Virus record (IMG/VR): IMGVR_UViG_2547132281_000014
Span: 1 to 40,471 of that record
Direction: 5' to 3' (one strand)
DNA length: 40,471 bases
DNA from: a virus
Taxonomy: Duplodnaviria; Heunggongvirae; Uroviricota; Caudoviricetes
The translations under genes were made by a program, and so were the position numbers. The notes beneath the pieces were generated by a model that was not told the origin of the DNA, did not search any database, and saw only the letters and a program-made list of their open reading frames with translations. Below, piece after piece: positions 39,026 through 39,952 of this stretch. The stretch's first letter is position 1, and every line of letters starts with the position of its first letter.

Positions 39026-39799
39026 TCAAAAATTAGGTGAGTAACGGACCGGGGACATAGCTCCTTTTTTTCTTAATTCATCTGGTATTTTTTTTCCAAG
39101 ATAAAGATTTGCTATTTCAGGTGGGGCTTCTCGACCTTCAAAACCATAGCGAGAACTTTGTGTTGCCTCAAAGTCCGGATCCTCGTCCCAGTATTTCATC
39201 GTAGGGAAATTTTCACGTGTTGATTTGAGCCATTTATCAGCAATGAAAACCCCTCGAACGATCCCCCTTACAGTAGCAAGAATGACTTCTGCTTGGCTGG
39301 CGCGAGAGACATTAATGCGCCAGCTAAATCGAACCGCATCATAAAGCTCTGAATCCTTTGCACTTCTGTTAACGGAAATCATTAATGCTTTATGATGAAA
39401 TGTTATGGTTTCGGGTTGATATGTTGCTATCAACTCTTTGACATGCGCGGCGCCGAATTCATTGCTGCCAGCACCATTCATGATATTCGTTAACCCAGGG
39501 TAGGCATCAATAAGTGCTGCTTCGACTTCGTACGCCGTCTTTTCATCAGTCATTCCGTGTCGATGGATGACATGGATAACCTCAAGTCCTGCTAACCTTA
39601 TTTCTCTAATTTGCTTTAGCTTGTTGCTCAGTAACTCGTCATCATCAGTCGCTGCCACTTCACCGCGCATATGGGCAAATACGCGGTTACCTTTGCCTTT
39701 CCCTACATAGAAGGTGCTTCCGTCCCTCGGATCAATCAATCGGTATACATACCAGCCAAGGTGTTCAATTACTCCAGAAGGAAACTCAGTAATATCCAT
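39026..39799 (-). CDS. GIY-YIG nuclease-domain protein with uncharacterised C-terminal domain, 257 aa
   Basis: N-terminal [31 protein letters not shown] carries a GIY...YIG-type motif with downstream Arg; ATG at 39799; AT-rich; between the invertase and IS1. Confidence 0.6.
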
Positions 39800-39952
39800 T
39801 TTGCAATATCTGTGAATTATTTGTGAGACGTATATTAATGAACATTGCAAGGGCTCACAACTAGTAGTGTTGAGAAAGCCATCGGGAAAATGAGGCTAAC
39901 CCTTTGAATTTACATAGCGCAAAAAGATACCTTTCCTCATAATGTGAGCTAA

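Follow-up and report, generated by a model that had tools for sequence, protein, structure and literature searches.

Introduction

PD-T4-3 is a phage defence protein recovered in a functional selection for resistance to T4 (Vassallo et al. 2022, PMC9519451). The main text of that study names a GIY-YIG nuclease among its hits and does not describe PD-T4-3 individually (PMC9519451); Liu et al. report it as coming from E. coli ECOR68 (PMC12923530). The same authors (Nat Commun 2026) renamed the protein CMoRE and studied the enzymes of E. coli O157:H7 and APEC O1 by biochemistry, structure determination, genetics with T4(hmC) and T4(C), and MOI experiments (PMC12923530). CMoRE lowers the plating of T2, T4 and T6 about 10^5-fold, and cultures carrying it live through infection at MOI > 1 with their host DNA intact, which marks the system as direct defence rather than abortive infection (PMC12923530). 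In the presence of Mg2+ or Mn2+, the purified enzyme degrades DNA containing 5-hydroxymethylcytosine (5hmC) or glucosyl-5hmC and leaves C- and 5mC-DNA uncut; T4(hmC) is still sensitive to it and T4(C) escapes (PMC12923530). Cleavage has no strict sequence requirement beyond the modified cytosine, needs two modified sites, follows the rule CN11/N9G and leaves 2-nt 3' overhangs (PMC12923530).

Several residues of the O157:H7 enzyme have been tied to these properties. Single mutations of Y17, Y19 and Y31 impair defence and abolish cleavage in vitro (PMC12923530). A 15-residue acidic loop between helices alpha2 and alpha3, found in most members of the family, covers the active site, and a four-alanine mutant of this loop cuts unmodified DNA and is toxic (PMC12923530). 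Function requires assembly into a tetramer, and a V92S/L96S variant loses both oligomerisation and defence, while the C-terminal domain binds 5hm-dCTP through a contact at Y127 (PMC12923530). From its native promoter, the APEC O1 allele gives much weaker defence (PMC12923530), from which it follows that promoter strength matters for CMoRE. Beyond these two enzymes, deletion of PD-T4-3 from its native strain NILS69 sensitised the host to Tevenvirinae (10.1101/2024.12.20.629700), and a Capnocytophaga homologue, which defends at very low, uninduced expression, degrades modified T4 DNA and not that of T4-GT7 (PMC12366544). Together with a member from Klebsiella, the O157:H7, APEC O1, NILS69 and Capnocytophaga proteins have thus been shown to cleave modified DNA or to restrict T-even phages. 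Here, we describe a member of this family at the right end of an e14-family prophage, its relation to an adjacent IS1 copy, and the variable position that it occupies.

Results

The window, i.e., the whole stretch of 40,471 nucleotides analysed here (IMG/VR record IMGVR_UViG_2547132281_000014), is a prophage of the e14 family. It shares with e14 of E. coli K-12 collinear segments of 87-97% identity that comprise ymfL/M, the terminase, the baseplate J/ymfQ/stf genes, tfa and the invertase gene pin. The annotated relative in strain D1, the closest complete genome, carries a complete lambdoid early gene set together with a head of the HK97 type and a contractile tail of the Mu type, and the prophage in the window looks complete. 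Its left end is formed by a tRNA-Thr(CGT) gene at 1369-1444 beside proA, followed by a tyrosine integrase at 1459-2622. This places the element at the thrW site, the integration site of CP4-6 in K-12. An Rfam search of the whole window returned this tRNA-Thr only and nothing near the gene discussed below.

A 20-nt inverted repeat (36488-36507 and 38330-38349, 95% complementary) flanks a 1.8-kb segment of alternative tail-fibre C-termini and tail-fibre-assembly genes, i.e., a Pin-invertible host-range segment. On the minus strand at 14926-15921, opposite the late genes and in the interval from the Q antiterminator region to the lysis genes, an ORF of 331 aa encodes a ClpP-like serine protease domain of the SDH type (Pfam, E 1.4e-14). 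It has no PADLOC match and is possibly a moron, that is, a cargo gene dispensable for phage growth. The window departs from strain D1 in the parts that hold four minus-strand ORFs (4171-4995, 5061-5741, 17722-18348 and 18392-18745), one of which, in the early region, belongs to DUF2303 (E 2e-92), while the other three match neither Pfam nor PADLOC.

Downstream of pin (38411-38965, plus strand) and convergent with it, separated by a 60-bp spacer, a gene on the minus strand occupies 39026-39799, including its stop codon at 39026-39028. Read from the ATG at 39799 it encodes 257 aa, as a preliminary description of this DNA had it. The same protein is annotated by RefSeq in other E. coli genomes, where the DNA is identical, as WP_000355484.1, at the same length and under the name 'LEM-3-like GIY-YIG domain-containing protein', and the crystallised CMoRE proteins are also 257 aa long. 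The ORF could be opened further, to 274 aa (39026..39850), from a TTG at 39850; we rejected this version on two grounds, namely that the RefSeq protein and both crystallised proteins begin with MDITEF and that the TTG falls within a candidate promoter described below. The segment from the stop codon to 39952, where an IS1 copy begins, had been called AT-rich, which holds to a moderate degree: the G+C content is 43.9% in the coding sequence and 36.6% in the 153 bp upstream of it, where the prophage as a whole has 51%.

The encoded protein belongs to a known defence family. The PADLOC profile PDLC04031 for PD-T4-3 aligns with it over practically its full length (E 2.4e-140, residues 1-256 against profile positions 1-255 of 256), and a sequence search of the PDB returned full-length relatives in 9U75/9U8D (E 3.7e-172) and 9U7U/9U7Z (E 1.1e-150). 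Relative to the O157:H7 enzyme (9U75/9U8D), the protein is 98.4% identical with four substitutions (T51A, E55D, Q169K, N197H); relative to the APEC O1 enzyme (9U7U/9U7Z), it is 85.2% identical over its full length with 38 substitutions, and neither alignment contains a gap. Gapless alignment over the full length also excludes a truncated remnant, a fate that the preliminary description had allowed for: the gene is intact. PHROGs places the whole protein in a family of 'unknown function', and no NCBIfam family matches it.

Both domains of CMoRE can be recognised. The N-terminal GIY-YIG domain, assigned to 39479..39799 (minus strand) after the CMoRE crystal structures (PMC12923530), contains the only domain that Pfam detects in the protein, the GIY-YIG-type LEM-3_GIY-YIG (PF22945, E 2.1e-14, residues 28-110), so that the motif noted in the preliminary description was correctly read. 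The 'GIYxY-YIG' motif with Y17, Y19 and Y31 spans residues 15-35 (39695..39757, minus strand), and the acidic autoinhibitory loop, residues 52-55, lies at 39635..39646 (minus strand) and reads DDDE, as in APEC O1, where O157:H7 has DDDD. Y17, Y19, Y31, R80, V92, L96 and Y127 are all present at their published numbering, among them the oligomerisation interface residues V92 and L96. For the C-terminal half, a sensor or DNA-binding domain had been proposed. Pfam has no model over it, but it aligns without gaps with both crystallised proteins and retains Y127, and so corresponds to the published 5hmC/5ghmC-sensing domain (PMC12923530), here approximately residues 119-257 (39029..39445, minus strand; the boundary is approximate). 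The gene has the single-component type I form, with 257 aa, two domains and no co-oriented partner gene; its neighbours are the convergent pin on one side and IS1 or non-coding DNA on the other. From its sequence, we assign it with high confidence as an orthologue of CMoRE/PD-T4-3, and the name of WP_000355484.1 can be changed accordingly, to CMoRE/PD-T4-3 type IV restriction endonuclease. The earlier suggestion of a single-gene, defence-type GIY-YIG protein carried as cargo at a prophage end is supported by the PADLOC and PDB matches.

GIY-YIG nucleases can also be selfish elements, and the gene might be a free-standing homing endonuclease instead of a defence gene. In keeping with this, the protein has a match to a PHROG homing endonuclease family, and full-length homologues in jumbo phages are labelled 'putative homing nuclease'. 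The PHROG match, however, is weak and partial (E 0.0021, residues 17-149), and the jumbo-phage labels appear to be annotation only. The gene lies in neither an intron nor an intein but stands free as cargo between pin and the prophage end, and Pfam finds neither NUMOD nor IENR1 nor any other homing DNA-binding module. Moreover, the near-identical O157:H7 protein has no strict sequence need and requires modified cytosine, and a family member restricts phages in its native host, NILS69. We therefore reject the homing reading as extremely improbable; the published CMoRE biochemistry effectively refutes it.

With the enzyme's identity in place, the mechanism of the window allele can be proposed on the grounds that the characterised O157:H7 enzyme is 98.4% identical. 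The protein would assemble into a tetramer, as a dimer of dimers, whose C-terminal domains would bind 5-hydroxymethyl- or glucosyl-hydroxymethyl-cytosine in DNA and whose N-terminal GIY-YIG domains, dependent on Mg2+ or Mn2+, would cut between two modified cytosines 21 bp apart (CN11/N9G), leaving 2-nt 3' overhangs. The acidic loop over the active site would exclude unmodified host DNA. T-even phage DNA should in this way be degraded early on entry and the cell survive, which would amount to direct defence.

Of the four differences between the window allele and the crystallised O157:H7 enzyme, two (T51, E55) lie in or beside the loop. Since the O157:H7 mutant with four alanines in the loop cuts ordinary DNA and is toxic, one could conceive of the window protein as an abortive-infection toxin, a nuclease that kills the infected cell non-specifically. 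We consider this a very slim prospect and reject it: all four acidic residues are retained in the DDDE form, residue 55 being in the state found in APEC O1, wild-type cultures survive MOI > 1 with intact host DNA (PMC12923530), and the allele is kept in many genomes. A strain with CMoRE is expected to resist T4-like phages with hmC or glucosyl-hmC DNA, which is relevant to phage therapy and phage typing.

Upstream of the gene, the retained sequence ends at a partial IS1 (39953..40471, minus strand), as noted in the preliminary description. Its terminal inverted repeat, GGTAATGACTCC..., begins at 39953, insB occupies 39968-40471 and runs to the end of the window, and homology to IS1-free relatives ends at 39952, so that the segment 39026-39952 begins with the stop codon and closes on the last base before IS1. 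Strain D1 has the identical junction, and the transposase annotated there by RefSeq is of the IS1A family. The element thus sits in non-coding DNA 153 bp upstream of the start codon, with insB co-oriented with CMoRE. The idea that IS1 had inserted into or displaced part of the cargo holds for the upstream DNA, into which it inserted, and for a block in strain D1 that replaces 180 bp of non-coding sequence; it does not hold for the CMoRE gene, which is untouched. Comparison with TW10722, an IS1-free relative with the same protein, shows the upstream region continuing past the insertion point, and homology between TW10722 and BS90R-A, a strain with a different context, runs to position 7031 of the TW10722 locus, 44 bp beyond that point. 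IS1 has accordingly removed the distal 44 bp of an upstream stretch that is conserved across contexts, and the 153 bp that remain (39800..39952, minus strand) are conserved in relatives whose flanks differ.

An intact coding sequence could still be affected in its expression, either silenced or mis-regulated by separation from its promoter, so that no protection results, or over-expressed by read-through from IS1. The loss of the distal 44 bp is compatible with silencing, as is a promoter and terminator scan of 38900-40100, which found no minus-strand promoter and no canonical terminator; the orientation of insB would permit read-through, and the level of expression matters in the family, with pH affecting it in another strain. 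Within the retained 153 bp, however, a candidate sigma-70 promoter can be picked out by eye 33-61 bp upstream of the ATG, with a -35 element TTGTGA (39860-39855), a 17-nt spacer and a -10 element TAATAT (39837-39832) on the minus strand; its match to consensus, 8/12, lies below the threshold of the scan, so that the pair is put forward by inference only. The junction with IS1 is rare: among the 857 matching records, six extend across it, with 99.2-100% identity, and four of these do not differ from the window. In all six complete genomes the ORF shows no decay, and one homologue defends at very low, uninduced expression (PMC12366544). The identical CMoRE protein occurs both with and without IS1. 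Altered expression through IS1 is, on balance, unlikely; the reading frame is intact, and a proximal promoter probably is too. The best overall explanation, in which we place very strong but sequence-based confidence, is that the locus encodes CMoRE, which would act by the O157:H7-type mechanism in view of its near-identity, and that IS1 has spared the reading frame.

What lies beyond the insertion point can be read from the IS1-free locus of TW10722. At 17-26 bp past it begins a 3' fragment of a tRNA-Ser gene, which by our own reading of the sequence is probably serU. The ~269 bp that come next match the DNA bordering this tRNA on the chromosome of nearly every E. coli, and fragment and flank together lie at ~7005-7353 of the TW10722 locus. 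Further out, a gene for an AraC-family regulator and the remnant of an IS precede a 64-bp repeat of the thrW 3' end (TW10722 locus 9156-9219). No attR copy of the thrW 3' end was found between CMoRE and IS1, or just beyond in IS1-free relatives; the sole thrW repeat is the one 2.2 kb further on, past the regulator gene and the IS remnant. On the phage side, then, no further gene separates CMoRE from an att-like scar. A scar of the serU type in an island at thrW indicates an older recombination or aberrant excision event, and the tRNA-Ser sequence looks like a carry-over from a prophage formerly integrated at a tRNA-Ser gene. In strain D1, 1002 bp across the gene and the junction are identical to the window. 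There, two inverted IS1 copies surround corA, ysgD and a gene fragment (D1 locus 6988-10229), and this IS1-corA-ysgD-IS1 block replaces the 180 bp of IS1-free sequence (TW10722 locus 6988-7167) that include the tRNA-Ser fragment. The block resembles a composite transposon whose cargo includes a copy of corA, the gene for a magnesium transporter.

The other boundary of the gene, towards pin, recurs widely. CMoRE is present in 852 of 5426 complete E. coli genomes (~16%, which adds to its bearing on phage therapy and typing), usually directly after pin in e14-family prophages, and the pin-to-CMoRE junction of the window recurs in at least 568 genomes. The spacer contains a hairpin at 38965..39006 (-19.8 kcal/mol, z = -2.8) that is probably a bidirectional terminator between the two genes, although the consensus terminator scan did not call it. 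Breakpoints cluster here: relatives with pin only lose homology at 38966-39005, homology to e14 ends at the pin stop codon (38966), the next gene in K-12 being mcrA, and BS90R-A, in which CMoRE stands without pin after a different tail-fibre module, gains homology to the window from 38965. In BS90R-A (locus 4059-7915), CMoRE sits beside two genes, one for a DNA cytosine methyltransferase and one for a type II restriction endonuclease, in what amounts to a small restriction cluster at the tail-fibre end of another prophage. Elsewhere the position after pin holds AbiLi and AbiLii (isolate F467; PADLOC E 2.5e-66 and 1.5e-09), a DinI-like gene (ECSD228) or uncharacterised hypothetical genes (23AR1101).

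The position after pin thus behaves as a small variable cargo slot, and its varied content fits the idea of prophage-end cargo. Whether the interval is, in e14-family prophages generally, a dedicated slot for exchangeable defence cassettes, with the pin hairpin and the prophage/att boundary as its edges, is a proposal that we see as evenly poised between right and wrong. If it holds, the serU fragment and the 269 bp of serU flank at thrW suggest capture of the cassette end, through either aberrant excision or inter-prophage recombination. A literature search for a described 'post-pin' hotspot returned no relevant match. If real, the slot would lengthen the list of prophage defence hotspots modestly and would involve no new mechanism.

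Discussion

The gene itself is already known, and it holds no new biology. The mildly new points are contextual, namely the post-pin slot, the serU scar, the position of IS1 and the jumbo-phage homologues without the loop. The closest described system is the O157:H7 CMoRE, which shares with the window gene its length of 257 aa and 98.4% of its residues, the GIYxY-YIG motif, the acidic loop, the interface residues, Y127 and the single-gene organisation. The setting is also the same, since both genes follow pinE in an e14-type prophage or remnant and have the flank with the AraC regulator next; the O157:H7 copy, however, lies in a degraded prophage remnant, whereas the prophage of the window looks complete. 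What sets the window gene apart are the four substitutions and the IS1 153 bp upstream. APEC O1 CMoRE has the same DDDE loop as the window protein, and its 38 substitutions fall mostly in the C-terminal domain.

In the K-12 e14 element, the slot immediately behind the pinE stop codon is taken by McrA (EcoKMcrA), which is likewise a type IV restriction enzyme. It is not homologous to CMoRE: it joins an N-terminal domain for 5mC recognition to an HNH nuclease and is encoded on the other strand relative to CMoRE, and Pfam detects no HNH nuclease domain in the window protein. The target of McrA is C5mCGG and not glucosylated hmC (PMC12707154). The resemblance between the two is positional and functional only.

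A different kind of likeness, confined to the catalytic fold, connects CMoRE with the GIY-YIG homing endonucleases that T-even phages carry as free-standing genes, such as I-TevI and the Seg proteins. Their C-terminal module for DNA binding is a different one, their targets are specific sequences, and they are selfish elements with no defensive role. Full-length CMoRE homologues with both domains and 38-46% identity occur in virulent jumbo phages whose hosts are Serratia, Pectobacterium, Pantoea, Pseudomonas and Klebsiella, for example in Serratia phage Moabite (locus 2501-3262) and Pseudomonas phage OBP (locus 2492-3250). In the alignment of these proteins with that of the window, Y17, Y19, Y31, R39 and E93 are invariant; the homologues also keep Y127 and are without the acidic DDDE loop. 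They are annotated as 'putative homing nuclease', and their role might be to counter co-infecting phages whose DNA is modified.
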